DNA from: Armatimonadota bacterium
Lineage (GTDB): Bacteria > Armatimonadota > Armatimonadia > Armatimonadales > Armatimonadaceae
Reading direction: 5' to 3'
NCBI GenBank assembly: GCA_043754515.1
Contig: JAYUUO010000016.1
Span: 1-18,723, forward strand
DNA length: 18,723 nucleotides
The notes under the pieces are model-generated. The model saw only the letters and a program-made list of their open reading frames with translations, was not told where the DNA came from and searched no databases. This document shows, one piece after another, positions 6,881 through 18,114 of this stretch; position 1 is the first letter of the stretch; each line of letters opens with the position of its first letter. A program made the position numbers and the translations under genes.

Positions 6881-8557
6881 ATGCGTACTATGAAATCACC
6901 CCGTTTCGGTTCGCCTCTTCTCCTTCTCGCCACCACATTAACACTCTGTGCGTCCCCTGCCCTCGCACGCGACGGCACACTCTCCAGTAAAGACGCGCGC
7001 AAAATGGCGGAGGCGACTCTGACCCGGCGCAACCTCCGCGCCTACCTCTCATTTATCGCGTCCGATGAACTGCAAGGGCGCGACACGCCGTCAGTCGGCC
7101 TGAACACGGCGGCGCGTTACATCGCGACGTTCCTGGAGCGGTGGGGTTTCGCGCCGCGCGGCGATAACGGCACCTACTTCCAGACGATAACGCTCCGCAC
7201 GCTGTACCTAGACGCCGCTAAATCATCGGCGACAGTAGGCGGGAAGACGCTACGCTATGGCGACGACTTCCTCCCTACCGGTGGGAGCGAGGAGCAAGTC
7301 GCCCTCCCCACCCCGGTACCGCTAGTATATGTCGGCAACGGATGGCTAGTGAAGTCGAAGAAGCTAGACGCTTACGCGGGCCTCGACGTGCGCGGCAAGA
7401 TCGTGGTCATCGCGCCGTCCGACTTCCCCCCGCCCGGCGTCACGCGCGATGAACTGACCCGCGCGGGGCGCGGCACCGACTGGATGACGCCGGACGCCTA
7501 CGCGCGGGCGAGCGGCGCGGTCGGGATCATACACCTGCCCGACTCGTCCGACCCGGCGGGCTGGGCAAGGATAGCGGCGGGCGCGAAGCCCTCGACCCGC
7601 ATCGGCACAACCCCGGTCGGCAAGAACGACCGGGCGAATACCTCGCTACCGGTGATAACGCTTTCCCCCGCCGCCGCGTCCGCGCTCTTCGCGGGCGAAA
7701 GGACTACACTCGACGCCGCGCTCGCTAAGGCGAAGCCGGAGGCGGGCGCGTTCGCGTTCGGCGCGGGCAAGACCGCCGCCATCAGTGTCGGCGTGACGGC
7801 GAAGACGGACACCACGCAGAACGTCGTCGCCTCATGGGAAGGAAGCGATGCGCGCCTCAAAGAGCAGTTCGTCGCGCTCGGTGCCCATTATGACCACCTG
7901 GGGGTGAATGAGTCCCCCACCGCGACCGGCGACCGGATTTATAACGGCGCGGATGACGACGGTTCGGGAACGGTAGCGTTGCTTTCGATGGCGGAAACGC
8001 TGGCGACACGCCCCGACAAACGCCCCAAACGAAGCGTCCTGTTCGTGTGGCATTGCGGCGAAGAAAAGGGATTGTGGGGCTCCTCGTTTTTTACGGAGAA
8101 CCCGACGGTGCCGATCACGAGCATCGTGGCGCAACTTAACATTGACATGATCGGCCGTAGCAAACCCGAGGGGGATACCCAACCGCGCGACAAAACTCTG
8201 TCAGACCCCGACACGATCTACGTGATCGGGTCGCGCATGATCTCGAACGATCTCGGCGACGTTGTGGACTGGGTCAACAACGACTACACGAAACTGCGCT
8301 ACGATTTGCGCTACGACGACTCCAAGGACCCGAACCGCTTCTATTACCGGAGCGACCACTACAACTACGCGCAACGCGGGATCCCGATCGCGTTCTTCTT
8401 CGACGGCGTTCACGTGGACTACCACCGCGTGTCCGACGAGGTGAGCAAGATTGACTTCCCGAAGTACGAGCGGGTGGCGCGGACAATATTCCTGACGGCG
8501 GTCGCGCTCGCGGACCGCGACAAGCCGCTCGCGGTTACGGGAACCAGCCGGAAGTAG
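6881..8557 (+). CDS. Secreted M28 family metallopeptidase with PA domain
   Basis: Signal peptide MRTMKSPRFGSPLLLLATTLTLCASPALA; IASDELQGR, LVYVGNG (PA domain), GAHYDH, NGADDDGSG, GEEKGLWGS, NIDMIGR, RSDHY, DYHRVSD. Start placed at ATG 6881 (or 6890) rather than 6764. Confidence 0.93.
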   Translation: MRTMKSPRFGSPLLLLATTLTLCASPALARDGTLSSKDARKMAEATLTRRNLRAYLSFIASDELQGRDTPSVGLNTAARYIATFLERWGFAPRGDNGTYFQTITLRTLYLDAAKSSATVGGKTLRYGDDFLPTGGSEEQVALPTPVPLVYVGNGWLVKSKKLDAYAGLDVRGKIVVIAPSDFPPPGVTRDELTRAGRGTDWMTPDAYARASGAVGIIHLPDSSDPAGWARIAAGAKPSTRIGTTPVGKNDRANTSLPVITLSPAAASALFAGERTTLDAALAKAKPEAGAFAFGAGKTAAISVGVTAKTDTTQNVVASWEGSDARLKEQFVALGAHYDHLGVNESPTATGDRIYNGADDDGSGTVALLSMAETLATRPDKRPKRSVLFVWHCGEEKGLWGSSFFTENPTVPITSIVAQLNIDMIGRSKPEGDTQPRDKTLSDPDTIYVIGSRMISNDLGDVVDWVNNDYTKLRYDLRYDDSKDPNRFYYRSDHYNYAQRGIPIAFFFDGVHVDYHRVSDEVSKIDFPKYERVARTIFLTAVALADRDKPLAVTGTSRK

Positions 8558-8655: not shown

Positions 8656-9030
8656 ATGACCACGGCTATTCAGGAACAACGGGCACGCATTGGTAGTGAA
8701 GGCACACTAATTTTACACCTGCCCGTCGGCGTGTGGGGATAGGACGTAGATGTACAGGTGCGCCCCGCCGCCCCGGCGAGCGACGCCGCGCTGGCCGCCG
8801 CGATCAACCGCCCCCTTGTCGGCTCGGTGCGCACACGTTATGACGCTTTAGCGGCGAAGCGGAACGCCGGGTCGCTGACCGCGCCGGAGTACGACGAGTT
8901 GCAGCGTCTGACCGACGGGATGGAGGCCGACCACCTCCTGCGCTGGGAGAATATCGCCCGCATCGCCGCGCTACGCGGCGATGCGGCGGCGTCGGTCGCT
9001 ACCCGGTTCGGATTGGTGCTTCCTGCCTGA
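8656..9030 (+). pseudogene. Antitoxin-like gene interrupted by an in-frame TAG (8740-8742)
   Basis: ATG 8656 gives MTTAIQEQRARIGSEGTLILHLPVGVWG*DVDVQVRP..., in frame with the listed ORF 8758-9030. The C-terminal RYDALAAKRNAGSLTAPEYDELQRLTD...IAALRG resembles small helical proteins found next to HNH toxins. TATAGT at 8644-8649. Confidence 0.6.
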
Positions 9031-9242
9031 TGACGGTTTCCGAGCGGTTGCGTGGGGACGGCGACAGTCGCGGCTGTGTCAATCGCGCTTATTACGCGCT
9101 GTATCAAGCGGTAACCGCAGTGTGTTGGACGCACGGCGACGCCCCGCTGTTCGCACACGGCTGGGGCAACCCGGCGCACGATCAGTTGCCGGGGTTAATA
9201 TCAAATAACGACGACCTGCCTTTAACCCCGCGCCGAAAGTGA
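9030..9242 (+). pseudogene. Truncated HEPN-domain (UPF0332-like) gene
   Basis: SRGCVNRAYYALYQAVTAV...HG...H matches the N-terminal half of HEPN proteins; the C-terminal R-x3-DY/RxxxxH region is absent; the ATG overlaps the upstream TGA. Confidence 0.65.
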
Positions 9243-9576
9243 CGGTCTGTGCGTCAGCAGTACCGCGTGTGCCGAGAACGCCGCTACGGGTGCTGGTGAC
9301 GCCGGTTCCGACCGCGCCGCTGGTGGCAAGCGTGACGCCCCAGTTCTCGTTGAAGTTCTGACCACCGTTTACGGAAGTCGAGGTGGTGTAGTTGACGGTG
9401 ATGCCGGACTGGACGAGGGTTTCGCTGCTCGCCCCACTCCCGTTGGCGCCCCAGTTCACGGTGTCTAGTTGCTGTGGCGGCGGCTCGGCTCGGGCGTTGG
9501 TGGTCGTGAGGGCGAGCGATACGGCGGCGAGCGCGGCGGACAGGGCGAGCGGGGCGATCTGGTTGATGCGTTTCAT
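9079..9576 (-). pseudogene. Secreted protein gene (probable PEP-CTERM-type) truncated at about 9225-9240
   Basis: ATG 9576 with AAGAAAG RBS-like sequence; signal peptide MKRINQIAPLALSAALAAVSLALTTTNARA; S/T/G/N-rich beta-type mature region up to QTVTFGAG, then an R/P-rich tail that is antisense to the HEPN fragment. Confidence 0.65.
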
Positions 9577-9734
9577 CGGTCTGCTTTCTTGTTGCGATGC
9601 TGGTGCGGAAGTGTCCGCACGGCGCGCACGGGTCGGTACCGCTTGGAGCGCGGCGGGTTTTCGATAGCAGGCACGGTATTCGCGCTTGGGTTCTATTGTG
9701 CGGGCGGCTTTCGGGGCGTGGGGACAATGGCAGA

Positions 9735-9750
9735 AAAAGCGTAACACTTT
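9735..9750 (+). promoter_or_regulatory. Conserved operator-like motif AAAAGCGTAACACTTT, copy 1
   Basis: Identical 16-mer at 16461-16476 and inverted at 11271-11286; pseudo-palindrome AAAG-Y-GT-W-AC-R-CTTT; 34 nt from a minus-strand CACAAT (9700-9695). Confidence 0.75.
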
Positions 9751-9774
9751 GTTGAATGCGGTGTTGAATGAGGT
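9751..9774 (+). repeat. 12-bp tandem repeat GTTGAATG(C/A)GGT x2
   Basis: GTTGAATGCGGT followed directly by GTTGAATGAGGT (11/12 identical), adjacent to motif copy 1. Confidence 0.7.
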
Positions 9775-9833
9775 ACCGACACGCGGTTACGAAGCCGGGT
9801 TAGAAATCATACTTACGGGGTTGATAGGAACTT

Positions 9834-11075
9834 ATGTTCTCGGATGTGCTACGCGATTTACGGAGGGGGCGGTGCTTGTCACTGGGGCAGCTATCCCTGC
9901 GATCCGGTGTCACGAAGGCGACGCTGTCGCGCTGGGAGGCGGGGGTGTATCAGCCGCGCCTTCCCGAACTCGGCTCTGTTCTGGATGCGCTGGGTGCGTC
10001 GCGGACCGACCGCACCCGGTGTTTGCAGACGCTTCATGCGCCCCGCGCTGTCGCCGCCGCCCGCTCCGAGAAAAGCGTCGCCCTGCACCTGTCGCTCGGC
10101 GATCTGTTGTACGGGTTGCGAGCGCGGGCGGGCGAAACACAGGAAACGGTGGCGCGAACGGTCGGAGTGTCTCGCGCTTTGTTTCGGAAATGGGAGTACG
10201 ACGATTGCGTTCCGTCGGAGGCGCAGATCCACACGATCTGTTTCGCTCTCGACGCGACATCTGACGAGGTCGTCACGCTGACGACGCGCCGATTCGCCGA
10301 CGTCGCGCCGGATAGAAGCCGCGACGCCATTCTGCACCGCGTGGCGATGACCGCGTACTGGGACGAAGCCTTTTCCGCCCCGCTCTACCGTTTGATGCTA
10401 ACGTCGTATCTCGCGCTCCTCGGTCGTCAAACGCGGCAAGGCAAGGCGGACAACGCCGACCTCGCGCTTTTGTTTACCAAACTCGGCGATTCGGCGACGT
10501 TTTTGAGCGATGACGAAGCCGCGGCGACGCACTGTCACGCCCGCGCCCGCGCGTATGCGGAACGCGCCCTTGAGCCGGTTCATTTCCATGTCATCGGGTC
10601 GGCGCGCGCTTTGCTAGACGAGAGAGCAAACCCGGCACCGCTACGGCAACGCGTTGACGCCGCGCTTGCGTGGAAGCCGCGCTTTCCGACAAACGCGGGC
10701 AAGGCGTACCTGCTGATGTTTATCGCCAAGGAGATGGCGAAGGAAGAACCGGACGAAGCACTGCGTATGGCCGACGAGTACTGCGCTTTGGTCGCGGGGG
10801 ACGCCGACGAGTACCCGTGCCGACTGAGCGACCGGGGGCGACTGCTCAACCTATGCGGTCGCCCCGCCGAGGCGGTCGCGTTTGTGCAGAAGTTAACCCC
10901 GCAGGACGATTTCCGCGCCGGTCTCCAGCAGTTGGATCTCGCCAGGGGGTTAATCGCCCTCGGTTCGGTCGCGGAAGCGGGGCAGTGCGTGGACGCCGCG
11001 AAACGGGTTCTGTCGCCCAAATCGCGCCTCGCTGTCACACTACAAATCGCCGATTTGGAGCGCGACTTAGGATAA
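9834..11075 (+). CDS. Transcriptional regulator with two tandem XRE/Cro-C1 HTH domains and a helical TPR-like C-terminus
   Basis: HTH1 LRDLRRGRCLSLGQLSLRSGVTKATLSRWEAGVYQP; HTH2 LYGLRARAGETQETVARTVGVSRALFRKWEYDDCVP; TPR-like RGRLLNLCGRPAEAVAF and LARGLIALGSVAEAGQC; AGGA RBS. Confidence 0.88.
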   Translation: MFSDVLRDLRRGRCLSLGQLSLRSGVTKATLSRWEAGVYQPRLPELGSVLDALGASRTDRTRCLQTLHAPRAVAAARSEKSVALHLSLGDLLYGLRARAGETQETVARTVGVSRALFRKWEYDDCVPSEAQIHTICFALDATSDEVVTLTTRRFADVAPDRSRDAILHRVAMTAYWDEAFSAPLYRLMLTSYLALLGRQTRQGKADNADLALLFTKLGDSATFLSDDEAAATHCHARARAYAERALEPVHFHVIGSARALLDERANPAPLRQRVDAALAWKPRFPTNAGKAYLLMFIAKEMAKEEPDEALRMADEYCALVAGDADEYPCRLSDRGRLLNLCGRPAEAVAFVQKLTPQDDFRAGLQQLDLARGLIALGSVAEAGQCVDAAKRVLSPKSRLAVTLQIADLERDLG

Positions 11076-11093
11076 CGCGCCCCGCGCCGACAC

Positions 11094-11121
11094 CGCGAGG
11101 CGCATCACGCGAGGCGCATCA
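11094..11121 (+). repeat. Perfect 14-bp tandem duplication CGCGAGGCGCATCA x2
   Basis: Read directly at 11094-11107 and 11108-11121. Confidence 0.9.
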
Positions 11122-11270
11122 AATGTCGCCCCGGCGTTTGGCCCCAGTAGCGGTTGTTGCCGCGCGTGGAAACGCCGCGCCGCCAAACGTGCCGCTCGCC
11201 CCACCGTTCTGAAATCCGCGTTGTTCGCTCCGGGTGTGCCGTCCGCGATGCTCCGGTTCACACCAGAAAC

Positions 11271-11286
11271 AAAGTGTTACGCTTTT
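11271..11286 (-). promoter_or_regulatory. Conserved operator-like motif, copy 2 (inverted)
   Basis: AAAGTGTTACGCTTTT is the reverse complement of copies 1 and 3; flanks also resemble copy 1 (GGCA...motif...GTT...GGTG(T)TGAA); 32 nt from AATAAT (11319-11324). Confidence 0.75.
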
Positions 11287-11389
11287 GTGCCGTTCCTCCC
11301 GAACGGGCAAAAGGGAGGAATAATGAGACGTGTGAGGGGAGTTGCGCACATGCCCGGAAGCACCCCTCCTGTTGCCTCAATGCATCTTC

Positions 11390-11434
11390 GCGCACCGTCT
11401 CCACGAAGGAAGGTGCGCACCGTCTCACGAAAGG
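11390..11434 (+). repeat. Imperfect ~20-bp direct repeat GCGCACCGTCTC(C)ACGAA(A)GG x2
   Basis: 11390-11409 GCGCACCGTCTCCACGAAGG and 11415-11434 GCGCACCGTCTCACGAAAGG. Confidence 0.8.
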
Positions 11435-11445
11435 TTTACCTCCGT

Positions 11446-11590
11446 TTATTGCCCGTGATACGCGCCCTCGTGAACCCGGTCGTAATCGTTAAGGCTCTCA
11501 AACGCCGTAAGTTCGCGCTCGCGGGCGGGCAGAGCGAGGTCGGCTTCGTACATCGGCGCGGCAGGCGCGTTCGCTATAAGGCGCGCGGTA
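11446..11590 (-). pseudogene. C-terminal remnant of a putative antitoxin-like protein
   Basis: Minus frame reads ARLIANAPAAPMYEADLALPARERELTAFESLNDYDRVHEGAYHGQ*. The YxxD...ELTAFxxL pattern recalls small acidic proteins encoded upstream of PemK/MazF toxins (recall-based, not verified). Confidence 0.4.
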
Positions 11591-11632
11591 GGGTTATGCC
11601 ATGCGATACGCTAAATGCCGGAGGCCCGATTC

Positions 11633-11884
11633 ATGCCTACCTTACGAAGACTTCGTTGACTTTTTAGTCGCCGAAGCCGCACCCGTCAAAATCATCGCGT
11701 TCGCGCCGAGTGACGCTTCCCGCGCCGCGCTTACGAACTGCTCGCGCACGAAAAAGACGGCGCTATCACCACCGCCGAGAAGCGTAAACTCGATCAGTTC
11801 GTTCAACTCGAACACGTCTTACGCGTCGCAAAAGCCCGCGCCTATGAGGGAATCGCCGCCACCGGGGGCTCGGTTCCCAAGTAA
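11633..11884 (+). pseudogene. Frameshifted antitoxin-like partner of the HNH gene
   Basis: GGAGG (11620-11624) and ATG 11633. Correcting frameshifts near 11641 and 11726 gives MPT-YEDFVDFLVAEAAPVKIIAFAPSDASRA-AYELLAHEKDGAITTAEKRKLDQFVQLEHVLRVAKARA...*, a pattern typical of genes upstream of HNH nucleases. Confidence 0.7.
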
Positions 11885-11887
11885 GCC

Positions 11888-12336
11888 ATGAGCGTTGCGT
11901 GTATCCCGCCGACCTGTACCGACTCGTTATCGCCCGTGCCGATAACGTTTGCGAGTATTGCCGTGCCCCCGCGTCCGCCGTGTTTTACGGTTGCGCCGGA
12001 CAAATCGCGCAACGATTTTCCGATGATCACATCGTCAGCGAAAAGCACGGCGGCTTGACTGTCGCAGCAAACCATGCCCTCGCATGTTTCCTTTGTAACC
12101 GGAACAAGGGTAGCAATGTCGCTACACTCGACCCGAAAGCCGGTGTGTTTGTGGGTTTCTTCCATCCACGCATCGGCGTCAGGAGCAATCATTTCGCGTT
12201 CGACCCCGGCGACGGCGTGACGTTTGAAGGGGTAGCCGACATCAGCGTGGCGACGATCCGCATTTTCGGCATCAACAACACCGAACGCGTGTTCGAGCGC
12301 GGCATCCTACGAAACGCCGGTCGCTACCCCGGTTAG
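11888..12336 (+). pseudogene. HNH endonuclease, probably inactivated (5' frameshift, insertion, motif substitutions)
   Basis: RADNVCEYC, DHIVSEKHGG, ALACFLCNRNKGS, FFHPR...HF and GRYP motifs. ATG 11888 (3 nt after the upstream TAA) is out of frame with the body, implying a 1-nt deletion near 11906; GTG 11899 is a possible rescue start. Confidence 0.75.
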
Positions 12337-12363
12337 CGCACCGGAATAGCGACCGACAGATGA

Positions 12364-12942
12364 CTACTTGCGGCGGCGCGCGACGACCACGGCGCCCATG
12401 CCGAACGCAGGCAGCAGAAGCGCGAGCGTCCCCGCTTCCGGCACCGTGACCGCGTTCGTCACCTTGATCGTGAACGCTACCGGGTCGGCGTTCAAAACGT
12501 CCGAGCCGCCGGGACCGCCGCCGGCGATGCTTATCATGCCGCCCGACGACACTCCCACCTTCGCGTTCGCGCCGACTTGGACGCCGAACACCTCGAACAT
12601 GACTTTCTGCCCCGGCGTCAGGTAATACTGGCCTACGTTGTTGGGGTCGGTGTCTTCGGTTAGGAAGTTCGGCACGTTATTGAAGAACGGGTTGTCATCC
12701 ACGGTAAAGTTTGGGCTGGTGAGGATGTTGCCTTCGATGATCAAGTCCGAGATGTACAGGTTGTCGCTGGGCAGCAGGTTCGTGAACGTAGCGAAATACT
12801 GCACCGTGCTGCCGGGCGTCGCCGCGCCGACTGCGGTAAGTTTTAGGTCGAGACCTTGCGCGGACGCAGCGAGCGGGGCGAGAACGGCGGCGGCGATGAG
12901 GGAAACGCGCAGGGCAGTCGCCGCGCTAAACAAACGATTCAT
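12364..12942 (-). CDS. PEP-CTERM sorting domain-containing secreted protein
   Basis: ATG 12942 with AAGGA RBS; signal peptide MNRLFSAATALRVSLIAAAVLAPLAASAQ; C-terminal VPEAGTLALLLPAFGMGAVVVARRRK (VPE + TM + basic cluster). Confidence 0.9.
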   Translation of the reverse strand: MNRLFSAATALRVSLIAAAVLAPLAASAQGLDLKLTAVGAATPGSTVQYFATFTNLLPSDNLYISDLIIEGNILTSPNFTVDDNPFFNNVPNFLTEDTDPNNVGQYYLTPGQKVMFEVFGVQVGANAKVGVSSGGMISIAGGGPGGSDVLNADPVAFTIKVTNAVTVPEAGTLALLLPAFGMGAVVVARRRK

Positions 12943-13038
12943 GGATGTATCCTTTAGTAAACAGGGGGTCGGGAGCGCGGCACACCTTGCTGTGTGCCGC
13001 GCCGGGGAGGGCATTGGCAACGAGCCGTTGTCGGACGG

Positions 13039-16000
13039 TTAGTTACTGGGCGTGGTGAATTGAATGCGTCCGTTGAACTCGAACGGATGCACTACGCCGT
13101 TATCGGTATAGCTGCCGATGACATTCACCATGGCGGGGTACCTCTGACCGGGCGTAAATGGATTCGTTCTGACGAGAAATGAGCGGCTCGTTACACCTGC
13201 TCCCGCCTTCACGGTGCCATAAACGACGGGAAGCGTCACGGAAGAATCGAGCGTGGCGTCCGCGCCGTTGACAGTCACCTTGAACGCCGTCACGGTCACA
13301 TCCGTCGCATCCAAGCCGCCGATGTTGCCGAACGTGAACGGCACGCGATACCCATACGCCACGTCTCCATTACTGCTTGTGTAAGTAAAGCTGGGGAAAA
13401 GCGTCGGCGGCACAATGTACCGCGCTTTGACGGGGCGGGTGTTAGTCGGCAGGGGGCTGACAAGCGGGATGCGATAGATGCCGCGCCCGTAAGTCGCCGC
13501 CATCAGGTAGCCCGTCCCCGGCATTGCCTTGAGCGTTCGCACCGACACCGCCGGGAAGCCGAGCGGTTGCGTCGCGTTCGTCCATGTCGCGCCGCCGTCC
13601 GTGGTTTGATACACGCCGTTATCCGCGCCCGCGTACCATGTGGTGAGCGGCGCGGCGAAGTCACGCGCCAGCGTGTTGAACGGCGCATCCGGCAGACCCG
13701 TCGGAGTTGTCGGACCCGGACCCGAACGATCTAGGAACGTCGGCGTCGCAACCGACGTGTCCTCACACTGATAGACGTGACCGCTACCCGTACCGGACAA
13801 CGTGACCAGTATGTCTTTGTCATTCGTGTCGTTGACACTGATCGAAGTGATCGCCCGAGTCGGCAGCGCACCGGTCGGCGCGGGGACTCCCGGTGCGGTA
13901 CTCAACCGCGTCCAGTTCGCGCCATTATCGAACGACCCCCACAACGAACCGTTCGGCGCTCCGGCGTAGATAGTCGTGCTTTTCGAGGGCGCGACCGCGA
14001 TACAGCGCAAACCGACGCCTTGGTTGTCGCCGTCAAGACCTTTGCTGTTATCGCTGTCGTTACCCGTCAGGCTGGCGGTGCCGAGGCGCGTCCACTTTGC
14101 CGTGAGCGGGCTGTAACGCCACGGGAAGTTCGACCCCACATACATCTCGTTCGGAAAGTTCGGGTTGATGCCGCAATACCCGATGAGCGGTTTGGCGTCG
14201 CCCTGACCGAAAGGCGGTGTTATTTCTGCTCTGTTCGCCCAGCTGTCCTGAGTTACAAAGGTGCCCAGGTTATTGTTTAGCAGGTAACTGCGCAAGGGGT
14301 TTGTCGGGTCCTGCGCCGCGCCCGCCCCGTCGCCCGCGACGGTGGCACGCCAGTTGTTGAGATCGCCTGTAGCGACCACCGCGCCGTTATCCTGCAACCC
14401 ACCTAACATGAAGTTCTCGTTGTACGGATGGAAGTCCGCTTGGTAGAACAGGGTGGTCGGTAAGTTAGCGTTGCGATCTTGCGTGGTTACCCAGGTAGCT
14501 AACGTCGGTGCCGCCGTCATCGGGTCGGTGTAGGTCACGGGGAAAAAACCGCCATCGTTGCCGATATAGACGCGACTCGGATCGCCAGGCGCGACCACCG
14601 AGAAGTGGTTGTCGCAATGTAGGATGGTATCGCTTTCTCGGCTTCTGCCGAAGTCCACCCAGTTGGGCGTCCAGTTGGCGTCGCTGACACCGAGCGCGCA
14701 GTTAACGCCCCAAAGTGACGGGTACAGGGCGTCTTTGAGAACGCCATTGACCGGTTGCGCCGCGCAGTTGAGGTACACGTTGTAGAACGTCTGCCCCCAG
14801 TTTTTAGCACCATTGAACGCGCCGGGCGTGCCAACACCGCTGATCTCTGTCCAAGTGTAGGTGTCGTTTGCCGGGTTACGCACGCCTTTGAGGAGTGCCT
14901 TATCGGAGGCGCGCAGCACGTAAACGAGGTTTGCGTCAACGGCGGATGCCGCCACGCGGAAGCCGTCGGTGTAATCTACCGTGCCGCCGTTGAAGGCGTT
15001 TGTCGGCAACGGTATCTGCGTCCACGTTGCGCCTTGGTCTACCGAGCGCCACAACCCCGCCTGTGCCGCAACATCCGACATCCCGGAGGCGTAGTAGTAG
15101 CGCCGGTTGTTTGCCTCATCGCGCGGACTCGCCGAAAGCGACGTCCACCGCGTGCCGCCGTTGTCTGCCCCATCGCCGAGCGTATCCACGATCCGCGTCC
15201 AAGTCACGCCGCCGTCGGTCGAACGCCAGCGGTAGCCCGTCGTGCTGCTATACGTCGCGGTGGTAGCGACCACAACACCGGCCGTGTCCTTGTCAAAAAC
15301 AATAACGCTCACCGCGTCGCCGACGATGCCCTTAGCCACCATCGGGATCGGCGTCCATGTCACGCCGCCGTCGGTCGAGCGCAGCACACCGCGCCCGGTG
15401 TTGCGCCCTTCGCCGCCTTGCGCATCGCCAAGACCGACCAGAATGTTCTGCGCGTTGAACGGGTCAATCGCTATTGTATTCGTTTCCTGCCGGGCTAAAA
15501 AGGCGTCGGCAATGGGTGCCCAAGTCACGCCCGCGTCGTTGGTTCTCCACACGCCGCCGGTGCTGGTCGCCGCGAAAACGGTGTTAGCGTCGGTTGGCGA
15601 TACTGCCATACCGTTGATACGACCACTGAAGTTCGCTTCGGGAGGACCATAGAATTTCCGTTGCCCGGAAGTGTTGACGAAGTTACGAGTGCCGACCGGT
15701 TCCCATTTTGTAGGGGCTACGGGAGCGGCGGGCGCGATGCCGCCCGAAACCGACGGCGTGCGATACAAGCCGGGATTCGCGGCGAGGGTCGCGGCGTCAA
15801 TTCCGCGGATCATCACGCGGTGGCGAACGCTCGTGGTCGCGGGCATGGCATCGCGGTGGGCGTCGGCGCGCACCAGGGCGGCGGAGTCAATCGTGTCGCG
15901 CGGAAACGCGCGCTCGCGCATCTCTTGCAGATACGCATCGTAATAGTCCGGCTCGCGCTCAGAACGGAACGGGTCGGCGGGTTCGGCACGGCGCGCTGCT

Positions 16001-16266
16001 TTGGCGGCTTCAACCGCCCCGTCATACGCTTTCTCCGCGGCGGCGCGCGCCTTGACATACGCAGTCATTTTCGAGACCGACGCGATTCGCTCGGGAAGCG
16101 GCACGGCGAGGGCGGGGTTTCGGAGGGCGGCTTTTAACCGGGCGTCCGCAGGCGTCGCTTGGGCCTTGGCGGCGGGCTTCGGGTGTACGGGAGCGGCGGT
16201 CGCGGCGAGGGGAACGCTAAGCGCTATGCTCAAGGTCGTTGCAAACAGAGGAGTTCGTTTCATCAA
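13039..16266 (-). CDS. Large secreted BNR/Asp-box repeat beta-propeller protein (GH74/sialidase/VPS10-like) with a C-terminal beta-sandwich
   Basis: Signal peptide; six Asp-box repeats (WRTNDAGVTW, LRSTDGGVTW, WRSTDGGVTW, WRSVDQGATW, WGSFDNGANW, YQTTDGGATW); SGRINGMAV, HCDNH, GNDGG, GGLQDNG and ATYGRG motifs; TAGAAAG RBS-like sequence. Confidence 0.9.
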   Translation of the reverse strand: MMKRTPLFATTLSIALSVPLAATAAPVHPKPAAKAQATPADARLKAALRNPALAVPLPERIASVSKMTAYVKARAAAEKAYDGAVEAAKAARRAEPADPFRSEREPDYYDAYLQEMRERAFPRDTIDSAALVRADAHRDAMPATTSVRHRVMIRGIDAATLAANPGLYRTPSVSGGIAPAAPVAPTKWEPVGTRNFVNTSGQRKFYGPPEANFSGRINGMAVSPTDANTVFAATSTGGVWRTNDAGVTWAPIADAFLARQETNTIAIDPFNAQNILVGLGDAQGGEGRNTGRGVLRSTDGGVTWTPIPMVAKGIVGDAVSVIVFDKDTAGVVVATTATYSSTTGYRWRSTDGGVTWTRIVDTLGDGADNGGTRWTSLSASPRDEANNRRYYYASGMSDVAAQAGLWRSVDQGATWTQIPLPTNAFNGGTVDYTDGFRVAASAVDANLVYVLRASDKALLKGVRNPANDTYTWTEISGVGTPGAFNGAKNWGQTFYNVYLNCAAQPVNGVLKDALYPSLWGVNCALGVSDANWTPNWVDFGRSRESDTILHCDNHFSVVAPGDPSRVYIGNDGGFFPVTYTDPMTAAPTLATWVTTQDRNANLPTTLFYQADFHPYNENFMLGGLQDNGAVVATGDLNNWRATVAGDGAGAAQDPTNPLRSYLLNNNLGTFVTQDSWANRAEITPPFGQGDAKPLIGYCGINPNFPNEMYVGSNFPWRYSPLTAKWTRLGTASLTGNDSDNSKGLDGDNQGVGLRCIAVAPSKSTTIYAGAPNGSLWGSFDNGANWTRLSTAPGVPAPTGALPTRAITSISVNDTNDKDILVTLSGTGSGHVYQCEDTSVATPTFLDRSGPGPTTPTGLPDAPFNTLARDFAAPLTTWYAGADNGVYQTTDGGATWTNATQPLGFPAVSVRTLKAMPGTGYLMAATYGRGIYRIPLVSPLPTNTRPVKARYIVPPTLFPSFTYTSSNGDVAYGYRVPFTFGNIGGLDATDVTVTAFKVTVNGADATLDSSVTLPVVYGTVKAGAGVTSRSFLVRTNPFTPGQRYPAMVNVIGSYTDNGVVHPFEFNGRIQFTTPSN

Positions 16267-16452
16267 ATGCTTTCTATGCGGTGTAGACAGTACAAACGGA
16301 CGGTGCGACGCGAACAGTGCTATGTCTGCGTTTCGCGGTTCCGATAGGCGCGATCCTCCGGTAGTCCGGTATTGCGGAGGTTTGCCGCAGCTCGCGCCAG
16401 GGCGGGTGTGCCATTGCCAGAATCGTATCGCGGCATTTCTCGTTTCGGGGGC

Positions 16453-16477
16453 GTGTTACTAAAAGCGTAACACTTTT
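16453..16477 (+). promoter_or_regulatory. Conserved operator-like motif, copy 3, with an overlapping inverted repeat GTGTTAC-N7-GTAACAC
   Basis: AAAAGCGTAACACTTTT at 16461-16477; 33 nt from a minus-strand TACGAT (16427-16422); shares upstream TTTCGGGG(G)CGTG with copy 1. Confidence 0.75.
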
Positions 16478-16484
16478 CTGTGGA

Positions 16485-16853
16485 GTGTTCTCCCTTGCCC
16501 GCCCCCGGCGGAGTTATAAGGAGCCGCGCCCGAGCGGTTCTCCGCGCCGGGACGATCCTATCGCCGCGCGCTACGAGGCGCATACCCTTGCCCTCATGGG
16601 GCAGACCGAGGAGGCTGTCACGGCGTTGGATCGAACGATGACGGGCGGCATCGCCACATTCCGCTGCTTGATATTGCTGGCACAGATCGCGTGGGCGGAC
16701 GGCGAACCAGACGTAGCACTTGGCTATCTGCGCGACGCCAGGACACTCGCAGGACAAAATGCCGAACACGCGCATTTGCAAGGCGTGCCGGACGACCTTC
16801 GCGCCGAACTCATCGGGGAGTGCGCCGAGGTGCCGGGATTCGCGCCACACTAA
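16485..16853 (+). pseudogene. TPR-like C-terminal remnant, likely of a deleted XRE/TPR regulator
   Basis: EAHTLALMGQTEEAVTALD...LAQIAWADGEPDVALGYLRDARTL is TPR-like and parallels the last repeats of the 9834-11075 protein; no well-spaced RBS/ATG and no HTH domain. Confidence 0.5.
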
Positions 16854-16887
16854 ACCGGGGACAAGACACGGCACCCCATAATTCGCG

Positions 16888-18114
16888 CTACTCGTAGCGC
16901 AACGCGTTAATCGGGTCCAGTTTCGCGGCGCGGAACGCCGGGTAGATGCCGAAGAACATCCCGACCCCGACCGCGAACCCGAACCCCAGTAGTGCCGCCC
17001 ACGGCGGCACGAACGTTGGCAGGTTCTCGCCCGCCACCGCCCCCACCAGTTTCGACACGCCGTACCCGAACGCAACCCCTATCAGCCCGCCGACCCCGGA
17101 TACCGTCATGCTCTCGGTCACGAACTGGAGCAGGATGTCGCCGCGCTTCGCTCCGACCGCTTTGCGGATGCCGATCTCTCGCGTCCGCTCCGTCACCGAC
17201 ACCAGCATGATGTTCATGATCCCGATGCCGCCGACCAGAAGCGACAAGCCGCCCACGCCGCCAAGGATCAGTTGAAAGATCATCAGAACGCCGTCCAGCC
17301 GCTGTAGCAACCCTTCCTGCGTGTCCACCACGAAATCTTGCGCGTTCTGCGGGTGGCGCGATTTTAGCACCGCGAACACCTCGTCGGCGGCGATTTCCGA
17401 ACTCACGCCGTCCGCCGCGCGCGCCGTCAAGCCGTTGATCTCCTCGGTGCCCGTCATCCGCTTCTGGTACGACGCGAGCGGGATGTAGATCTTTTCGTCC
17501 TCGGACGGCTGACCGAACGAGCCTTTGCCTTTGTACTGGAGAAGACCCACCACGGTGTAGGGCACCCGGTCGCCGTTCAAATTGACCACGATCTGCTTGC
17601 CAACGGGATCAACGTCCTTGCCGAACAACTCGCCGCGGATCTTGTCGCCGATCACGCAAATCTTCGACCAGTCCGCGCTGTCGGTCTCCTCAACGAAACG
17701 ACCTTCAGCGATTTTGATCGCGTTAACATCGGGATACCGGTCCGTAACCCCGACCATCGTGCCGCTATAATTCTTCTTGCCATTCTCGAACTTCGCCGGC
17801 ATGTCCGCGTTCGGCACGATCACTCGGATGCTCCCCAAACGCCGCTCGATGGCGCGTATGTCTTCCAAACGGAGTCCCGCGAATGATCCGCGCCGACCGT
17901 TGGAGTCACGCTTGGGGGCGTAGAAGGCGAAGAGCAGGTTAGCACCGTCACTCTGGAAGTCTTTCACGACCTTCTGCCGCGCCCCCTGCACGATAGAGAT
18001 CATGATAATAACCGAGGCGACCCCGATGATCACGCCGAGCATCGTTAAAAAGGAGCGGAGTTTGTTGGCGTTCAAAGCCTCTAGCGCGAGGCGGACCGAG
18101 TCGAGGACATTCAT
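16888..18114 (-). CDS. ABC transporter permease, MacB/FtsX family
   Basis: NKLRSFLTMLGVIIGVASVI, GRF, VIG and LLVGGIGIMNIMLVSVTERTREIGIRKAVGA motifs, ending GIYPAFRAAKLDPINALRYE; AAAGGGA RBS. Confidence 0.96.
   Translation of the reverse strand: MNVLDSVRLALEALNANKLRSFLTMLGVIIGVASVIIMISIVQGARQKVVKDFQSDGANLLFAFYAPKRDSNGRRGSFAGLRLEDIRAIERRLGSIRVIVPNADMPAKFENGKKNYSGTMVGVTDRYPDVNAIKIAEGRFVEETDSADWSKICVIGDKIRGELFGKDVDPVGKQIVVNLNGDRVPYTVVGLLQYKGKGSFGQPSEDEKIYIPLASYQKRMTGTEEINGLTARAADGVSSEIAADEVFAVLKSRHPQNAQDFVVDTQEGLLQRLDGVLMIFQLILGGVGGLSLLVGGIGIMNIMLVSVTERTREIGIRKAVGAKRGDILLQFVTESMTVSGVGGLIGVAFGYGVSKLVGAVAGENLPTFVPPWAALLGFGFAVGVGMFFGIYPAFRAAKLDPINALRYE

Follow-up and report, generated by a model that had tools for sequence, protein, structure and literature searches.

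Genomic setting of the repeated element

The window analysed here is a stretch of 18,723 nucleotides, the entire contig C16 of an Armatimonadota bacterium whose genome comprises 5.13 Mb at 62% GC in 313 contigs. It contains a 16-nucleotide repeat in three copies, a gene for a 413-residue protein with two XRE-type helix-turn-helix (HTH) domains, here called the regulator, and genes for exported proteins, some of them of the PEP-CTERM type (Table 1). Judged from sequence, the repeat is a real, selected and previously undescribed site that probably forms an operator-regulator pair with the neighbouring gene and serves small local regulons for exported proteins; binding of the protein to it is predicted.

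Table 1. Features of the window, with positions counted from its first nucleotide
Feature	Position	Strand	Remarks
Regulator, 413 aa	9834..11075	+	XRE-HTH1 ~3-66, flexible linker, XRE-HTH2 ~88-151, TPR-like solenoid ~160-413
Codons 27-30 (T-K-A-T)	9912..9923	+	start of the recognition helix in HTH1; base 7 co-varies with residues 27 and 30
Site copy 1	9735..9750 (core 15-mer 9736-9750)	+	between regulator and divergent target; strand G-T-AAC points toward regulator
Site copy 2	11271..11286	-	195 nt past regulator stop; promoter directed away; no intact exported target after it
Site copy 3	16461..16476	+	
Inverted site core GTTAC	16455..16459	+	7 nt off core; candidate second half-site, degenerate at other copies
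-10-like CACAAT	9695..9700	-	35 nt from 15-mer; predicted start near 9688; no good -35
-10-like AATAAT	11319..11324	+	33 nt from 15-mer
-10-like TACGAT	16422..16427	-	34 nt from 15-mer
Target 1, 5' half of PEP-CTERM protein with signal peptide	9214..9576	-	40% identity over 113 aa, E 3e-13, to L279 PEP-CTERM protein
Target 3, 1074-aa signal-peptide BNR/Vps10-like repeat protein	13039..16263	-	
PEP-CTERM gene, likely co-transcribed	12364..12942	-	96 nt downstream of target 3
Short TPR-like open reading frame behind copy 3	16485..16853	+	TPR_14 E 4e-5; possible regulator C-terminal remnant

The three exact copies and a symmetry of 12 in 15 positions had been reported in an earlier note on this DNA, and both were verified. 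With up to three mismatches, 0.08 copies would be expected in the window by chance (shuffles), and a fifth-order Markov model predicts 0.00025 exact copies for the genome, in which we found four exact copies, none at one mismatch, one at two and 14 at three. The fourth exact copy (G000:C301:1181) lies ahead of a PEP-CTERM gene, with CACAAT at 34 nt and no adjoining regulator. Copies 1 and 4 share 79% identity across 63 nt; copies 2 and 3 have little sequence in common outside the site, and their flanks cannot be aligned to copy 1 beyond it. The setting had also been described as AT-rich, which holds for the site itself and not for the surrounding 100 nt (55-56% GC against 62% in the genome). 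The symmetric search pattern suggested in the note returned four exact matches, none at one mismatch and 25 at two in the own genome; it hides an informative asymmetry, the family site being directional. A strain contig spanning copy 3 shows nine differences in 267 nt, of which the six listed all fall outside the site and the -10 hexamer, too few to count.

Promoter geometry

The hexamers CACAAT, AATAAT and TACGAT, placed by the earlier note 34, 32 and 33 nt from the 16-mer, were verified; recomputed transcription starts agree with those predicted near 9688, 11331 and 16415, and the computed distances of 159 and 198 nt to the ATG codons match its estimates. Counted from the 15-mer, each of the four own sites is 33-35 nt away from a -10-like hexamer, and three of them face signal-peptide genes. 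A matrix scan of the own genome gave 113 hits, and a -10 at this spacing occurs at the four exact sites only, a result that is partly circular since the threshold was placed just below the score of these sites.

An independent view comes from 34 sites of relatives (score at least 11, own locus left out), for which the -10 was not used in picking. On the side away from the regulator, 17 of them have a -10-like hexamer at a distance of 33-35 nt from the 15-mer, compared to a mean of 1.7 and a maximum of 5 for other windows of 3 nt, and no positional peak of -10 hexamers appears on the regulator side. The -10 matrix used here is approximate, with a cut-off of 3.5 that was chosen knowing that the own sites score 3.6-5.2. 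In two duplicated promoters of one relative the -10 is a helical turn more distant, at 45 nt. The -35 elements are weak, with a mean best score of 1.1 bits and a score of at least 4 in four of 20 target promoters, and no two-hexamer sigma-70 promoter was found in 9400-17000. Of 35 sites, 13 have a degenerate copy of the core in inverted orientation that begins 2-4 nt to the promoter side of the 15-mer (mean of 3.8 in shuffles, 0 of 2000 shuffles), at a position picked after inspection; because of this second copy, the operator may extend to about 25 bp. On the other side, 16 of 35 sites have a strong -10, belonging to the promoter of the regulator itself, that begins no more than 30 nt away, a count for which no control was computed; in the window, the candidate -10 of the regulator (CATACT, 9808-9813) is 57 nt away from the site.

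Several further features of these promoters were observed. The regulator genes of L009, L011, L012 and L027 seem to lack a leader, their start codons following the -10 hexamer at 6-9 nt; in L027 and L209, tandem sites are spaced by 19-20 nt. In the window, an imperfect tandem duplication of about 20 nt (11391-11433) is present in the leader after copy 2. As RNA, the region after copy 2 gave a fold z of 0.14 and no Rfam match, and it is not similar to the leaders behind downstream sites in relatives.

The regulator family and its site in relatives

Homologues of the regulator were detected in 14 of the 31 other genomes of the family, with up to nine matches each, in 20 of 42 genomes of another family, and, in a sample of 300 other genomes of the phylum, in 17 (E up to 1e-30). 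At the same E limit the family comprises 267 clusters at 50% identity. Pfam HTH_31 matches two stretches of the regulator (E 3.8e-17), the Pfam scan gave no TPR hit, no NCBIfam family scored above its cut-off, and the domain scans found no AAA+ or receiver domain; its neighbours in the Atlas are unnamed HTH-TPR clusters. A full-length model reached a predicted local distance difference test score (pLDDT) of 90 and a predicted template modelling score (pTM) of 0.79. In a model of the two HTHs (pLDDT 89, pTM 0.48) each domain folds well, with no fixed mutual orientation. Residues D209, E326, C329, R330, D333, D358 and R361 of the solenoid are invariant polar positions in the close clade and start alternate helices in the model, and no Asn is conserved family-wide in the TPR part. 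Of the two in-genome paralogues, one (C15, 48% identity) has its 5' end and promoter beyond the contig and is unusable for comparison, and the other (C297) is a broken gene.

The exact 15-mer is absent from 40 relatives, and variants of it were found upstream of homologous regulators. From 71 N-terminally complete hits, 63 with E <1e-18 and at least 150 nt upstream were retained, and 60 after three redundant ones had been dropped. Unseeded Gibbs sampling of these 60 upstream regions returned AAAAGnGCAAC / AnnGnAACGnTTTT at 10.75 bits, compared to 7.6-7.75 bits in shuffles, and the best five of eight runs return parts of AAAAG-n-G-n-AAC-R-n-TTT. The site matrix was seeded by this consensus and refined with position 7 masked. 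Sites of relatives are directional: G-N-AAC points toward the regulator, and the base mirroring N is A in more than 90%. The same site, geometry and head-to-head layout are found beside homologues of other genera and families. A scan for the exact 15-mer across taxa was discarded, as its roughly 800 stretches came from unrelated taxa and were near chance (about 1,100 expected in 596 Gb).

Base 7 and the recognition helix of HTH1

When 399 alignment columns of 31 regulators were compared with base 7, which had been masked at picking, the best tracking columns were T30, E35 and T27, all in the recognition helix of HTH1; T30 and T27 were again at the top among 162 columns of 42 regulators. With Asn, His or Asp at residue 27 the base is C in 15 of 15 cases, compared to five of 27 with other residues (Fisher p 1.6e-7, with kinship not taken into account). 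Eight changes of residue class and nine of the base were counted on a tree from which HTH1 had been left out. The window protein has Thr at residue 27 and T in all four sites, and the closest relatives with Asn or His have C. Furthermore, helices of the type K-[ASG]-T carry sites in 26 of 35 cases, and other helices in 16 of 60. We regard this covariation of residue 27 and base 7 as suggestive of HTH1 reading the site.

Target genes

The gene divergent to the regulator was classified for 88 of 97 regulators, nine having too little upstream DNA, by a crude signal rule that scores 30% of long open reading frames. It is PEP-CTERM-like in 20 cases (one of them a false pattern match; background 2.7%), encodes another signal-peptide protein in 24 and is prepilin-like in four. 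Exported divergent genes accompany 25 of 33 regulators with a site, the one of the window included, and 23 of 55 without. At four of 88 loci a site lies downstream of the regulator: three such sites, in relatives, face exported genes, and the remaining one, copy 2 of the window, does not. A sub-clade (L015, L200, L203, L282 and L247) faces prepilin-type genes, and three of its members have two sites about 39 nt apart.

That copies 1 and 3 point to signal-peptide genes, as claimed before, was confirmed, with the addition that the gene at copy 1 is a 3'-truncated PEP-CTERM homologue. Its similarity stops at residue 116 (about 9229), beyond which the frame reads through a HEPN-like remnant in antisense; the intact homologues in L279 are also arranged head-to-head with such regulators. 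Target 3 and the PEP-CTERM gene behind it have a paralogous operon of the same gene order on C24 that lacks the site: the best scores upstream of this operon and of three same-genus homologues of target 3 were 7.4, 6.5, 0.5 and 10.1. The C24 operon shows 72% protein identity, and a GC-rich hairpin between the BNR-repeat and PEP-CTERM genes (12975-13004), of which the stem and not the loop is kept at G000:C24 ~8025-8055, is a candidate processing or stability element.

The target on C301 encodes 231 residues with a signal peptide and a PEP-CTERM tail, and a homologue (57% identical) is part of the divergent gene run beside a regulator in a same-genus genome. This gene and copy 4 are located between imperfect direct repeats of about 75 nt (L001 151-221 and 1223-1297), which hold a promoter-like stretch that is unique in the genome, as if an insertion had duplicated the promoter of the next gene. 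The genome encodes three exosortase-family proteins and about 55 PEP-CTERM-like open reading frames. Only one of these 55 has a true site directly upstream (three hits score at least 13, the other two being weak and without a -10), which does not support a general control of PEP-CTERM genes.

Decay of the locus and the cassette question

The XRE/TPR gene or remnant that the earlier note placed beside copies 1 and 3 is the regulator at copy 1; the frame behind copy 3 is TPR-like as stated, and it is at most a possible remnant of the regulator family. It matches positions 329-420 of the family profile with E 8e-4, unrelated TPR proteins score better, and blastp against the collected homologues gave no match (best E 0.45 in frame). 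A duplication as a whole cassette is unsupported, because copy 4 has no regulator, the TPR frame at copy 3 is unassigned and the flanks of copies 2 and 3 cannot be aligned to copy 1.

With target 1 truncated and copy 2 lacking an intact target, the island in the window is partly decayed. On the plus strand at 8657-9242, an antitoxin-like frame with an in-frame stop is followed by a HEPN-like frame that is cut off near 9242; the latter is 56% identical to a copy at C77:5359-5589 and abuts the truncated target 1 in head-on orientation, which marks a deletion. A second decayed pair, downstream of copy 2 (about 11630-12336, plus strand), consists of a frameshifted antitoxin-like gene and an HNH gene that has several homologues in other parts of the genome. 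L279 and L283 have homologous 59-aa lipoprotein-like frames downstream of, and convergent with, the regulator, the only repeated small secreted frame found.

Interpretation and alternative explanations

The best explanation of the 16-mer is an operator bound by the tandem-XRE/TPR-like regulator next to it, a presumed activator of a few genes for exported or PEP-CTERM surface proteins; we give this explanation a probability of roughly 0.7. The earlier note had proposed an uncharacterised operator of a double-XRE protein at a fixed -10 distance before exported-protein genes, and independent genomes support this. From the promoter geometry we infer that the regulator acts as an activator, presumably of housekeeping-sigma promoters without a -35 element. 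HTH1 would read the G-N-AAC core, with residue 27 selecting N (Thr for T here; Asn, His or Asp for C). Binding centred near -54, maybe extended by a degenerate second half-site toward the -35 region, would recruit RNA polymerase. The site also coincides with the promoter of the regulator gene itself in many relatives, and binding there may repress it. The regulator may act in trans as well, as on C301, and the TPR-like groove could bind a ligand or partner that gates its activity.

Several results weigh against this explanation. A held-out set of 37 homologues (39 less two redundant ones), almost all from another family and mostly with different recognition helices, is mostly without the site: only four of 37 reach a score of at least 11 (null 1.8%), and the association with the helix is not significant (2/3 versus 6/33, p 0.12). 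Several close homologues lack a site (L011, L034), half of the 34 sites in relatives have no -10 at the expected spacing, and copy 2 is intact despite having no intact target. Across the genomes of the 31 relatives the bare pattern is not enriched, with 11 hits compared to 10 for the reversed control; by inspection seven of the 11 have a -10 at 34-35 nt, five are within about 1 kb of a regulator gene and four look like chance. The strict pattern of site and -10 gave two hits in these genomes, both already known. When phylogeny is taken into account, the covariation comes down to four independent pairs, which lie on well-supported branches and agree in direction (p 0.125; 3.8 pairs on average, the opposite direction never). 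Ser at residue 27 is found with all four bases, and among the HTH2 columns compared with the right half of the site none stands out.

The same protein and site might mainly serve repression of the regulator's own promoter and of the targets, relieved by a ligand at the TPR-like domain, the spacing being inherited or that of another factor. XRE domains are mostly found in repressors, and the proximity of the site to the own promoter as well as the few usable -35 elements at targets would fit. However, the site lies upstream of -46, outside the footprint of the polymerase core on the target promoter, the spacing of 33-35 nt is held across families, and the poor -35 scores with no two-hexamer promoter in the region speak against it as well. 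We consider this explanation unlikely.

Also improbable, and a little more so, is that another trans-acting or global factor binds the site, such as a CRP-like activator or an extracytoplasmic function (ECF) or other sigma factor, with the XRE genes as merely co-located targets. The G-N-AAC core resembles ECF -35 elements, and it is retained beside homologues with differing helices. On the other hand, the genome has only four sites and none at one mismatch, no fixed -10 follows AAC, base 7 tracks the recognition helix of the neighbour, and homologues with unlike helices are mostly without the site. At 16-17 nt after AAC, where an ECF-type -10 would be placed, no peak of TAnnnT-type hexamers and no other conserved element was seen, an ECF-specific matrix not having been run.

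That the 16-mers are recombination sites or ends of a mobile element, with copies 1 and 2 inverted around the regulator gene, is very improbable: a 19-nt perfect inverted match between these copies, the identical asymmetric core, the island-like decay nearby and the direct repeats on C301 would agree with it, but there is no target-site duplication in the form of a direct repeat common to the 12 nt that flank copies 1 and 2 on the outside, the 13 window frames scanned include no transposase or recombinase family (enzymes acting in trans were not searched), the site varies between genomes with the regulator helix and keeps its promoter spacing, and two metagenome assemblies, with the ends poorly covered, contain no inversion joint.

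Comparison with known regulatory systems

By analogy, the regulator likely works like the activators Rgg, ComR and PlcR of the RRNPP(A) group, with which it shares an XRE-HTH, a TPR-like solenoid (fold from the model) and a length of about 400 aa. According to PMC6703854, ComR promoters combine a pseudo-palindrome, a fixed spacer and a -10, the same layout as here. PMC10075063 lists a signature of five points, including an adjacent propeptide and a receptor of 250-500 aa. With 413 aa the regulator falls within this range, and the model has a TPR-like C-terminal fold at Z 14-15. Such values were obtained for RRNPP and unrelated TPR proteins alike: PlcR aligned to residues 85-412 (270 aligned, Z 14.1, root-mean-square deviation (rmsd) 11.0), phage Rap to 152-413 (240 aligned, Z 14.9, rmsd 4.7), on a par with unrelated TPR proteins. 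A Foldseek search with the full model was led by ComR, PlcR and Rgg2, all of them weak (E 1.5e-3 to 5e-3, none under 0.001). Rgg and PrgX are likewise without TPRs at the sequence level (PMC9765709).

RRNPP proteins have a single N-terminal HTH or three-helix bundle, whereas the regulator has two XRE-HTHs, and its extra N-terminal HTH is the one tied to the site. Its host is no Firmicute and has exosortases and PEP-CTERM proteins, and the targets are surface proteins. No adjacent secreted propeptide of 10-100 aa was found at the window regulator by a crude rule without SignalP, which leaderless or short-hydrophobic-peptide-like frames could escape; candidates at nine of 75 homologues are mutually unrelated save one pair, and a control gave 16 of 300 window pairs. 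Because of the two HTHs and since no adjacent propeptide was found, we do not count the regulator as a member of RRNPP.

The regulator can also be compared with divergent XRE regulators, namely cI of lambda and 434 and the C proteins of restriction-modification systems, which act as both activators and repressors at divergent promoters. Common to them are the HTH fold and one site between head-to-head promoters; each HTH of the regulator matches C.AhdI, ImmR, SinR, P22 c2 and 434 repressor (Z 10-11, rmsd 1.2-3, 61-66 aligned). In contrast, a single chain of the regulator combines two HTHs, whose relative orientation is not fixed in the model, with a large TPR-like domain, and no solved tandem-XRE chain closely matching both HTHs was among the matches listed.

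PEP-CTERM genes of Proteobacteria are controlled by PrsK/PrsR and sigma-54, as described in PMC1569441, and both cases have in common that PEP-CTERM genes with long leaders are preceded by a conserved activator site. Sigma-54 is encoded in the genome; a -24/-12 promoter past the site was found at none of the four own promoters and at two of 33 in relatives, and TTTACA is absent from the 260 nt after each of the four sites. The regulator is not NtrC-like, and its control would be local, over few genes, and not regulon-wide. We therefore rejected the PrsK/PrsR sigma-54 system, in view of the missing -24/-12 and TTTACA elements and the lack of an NtrC-like regulator.

Significance

In the available literature on PEP-CTERM and Armatimonad regulators, RRNPP in Gram-negatives, tandem-HTH/TPR activators and the site strings, covering few subscription papers and no supplementary regulon tables, this regulator-site pair was not found. 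A far-reaching and doubtful idea is that such proteins are phylum-wide RRNPP-like peptide sensors outside Firmicutes, each switching on its own surface cassette and insulated from paralogues by one residue of HTH1 and one base, and that the peptide would be a fragment of the exported targets themselves, either the signal peptide or the PEP-CTERM tail, with no dedicated pheromone gene involved. Further regulators of PEP-CTERM genes remain to be found, according to PMC1569441. The present results link an unnamed regulator family of a barely studied phylum to a site, to a spacing of promoter elements and to a rule, open to testing, by which a residue selects a base; this may offer a non-sigma-54 route to the control of PEP-CTERM surface proteins.

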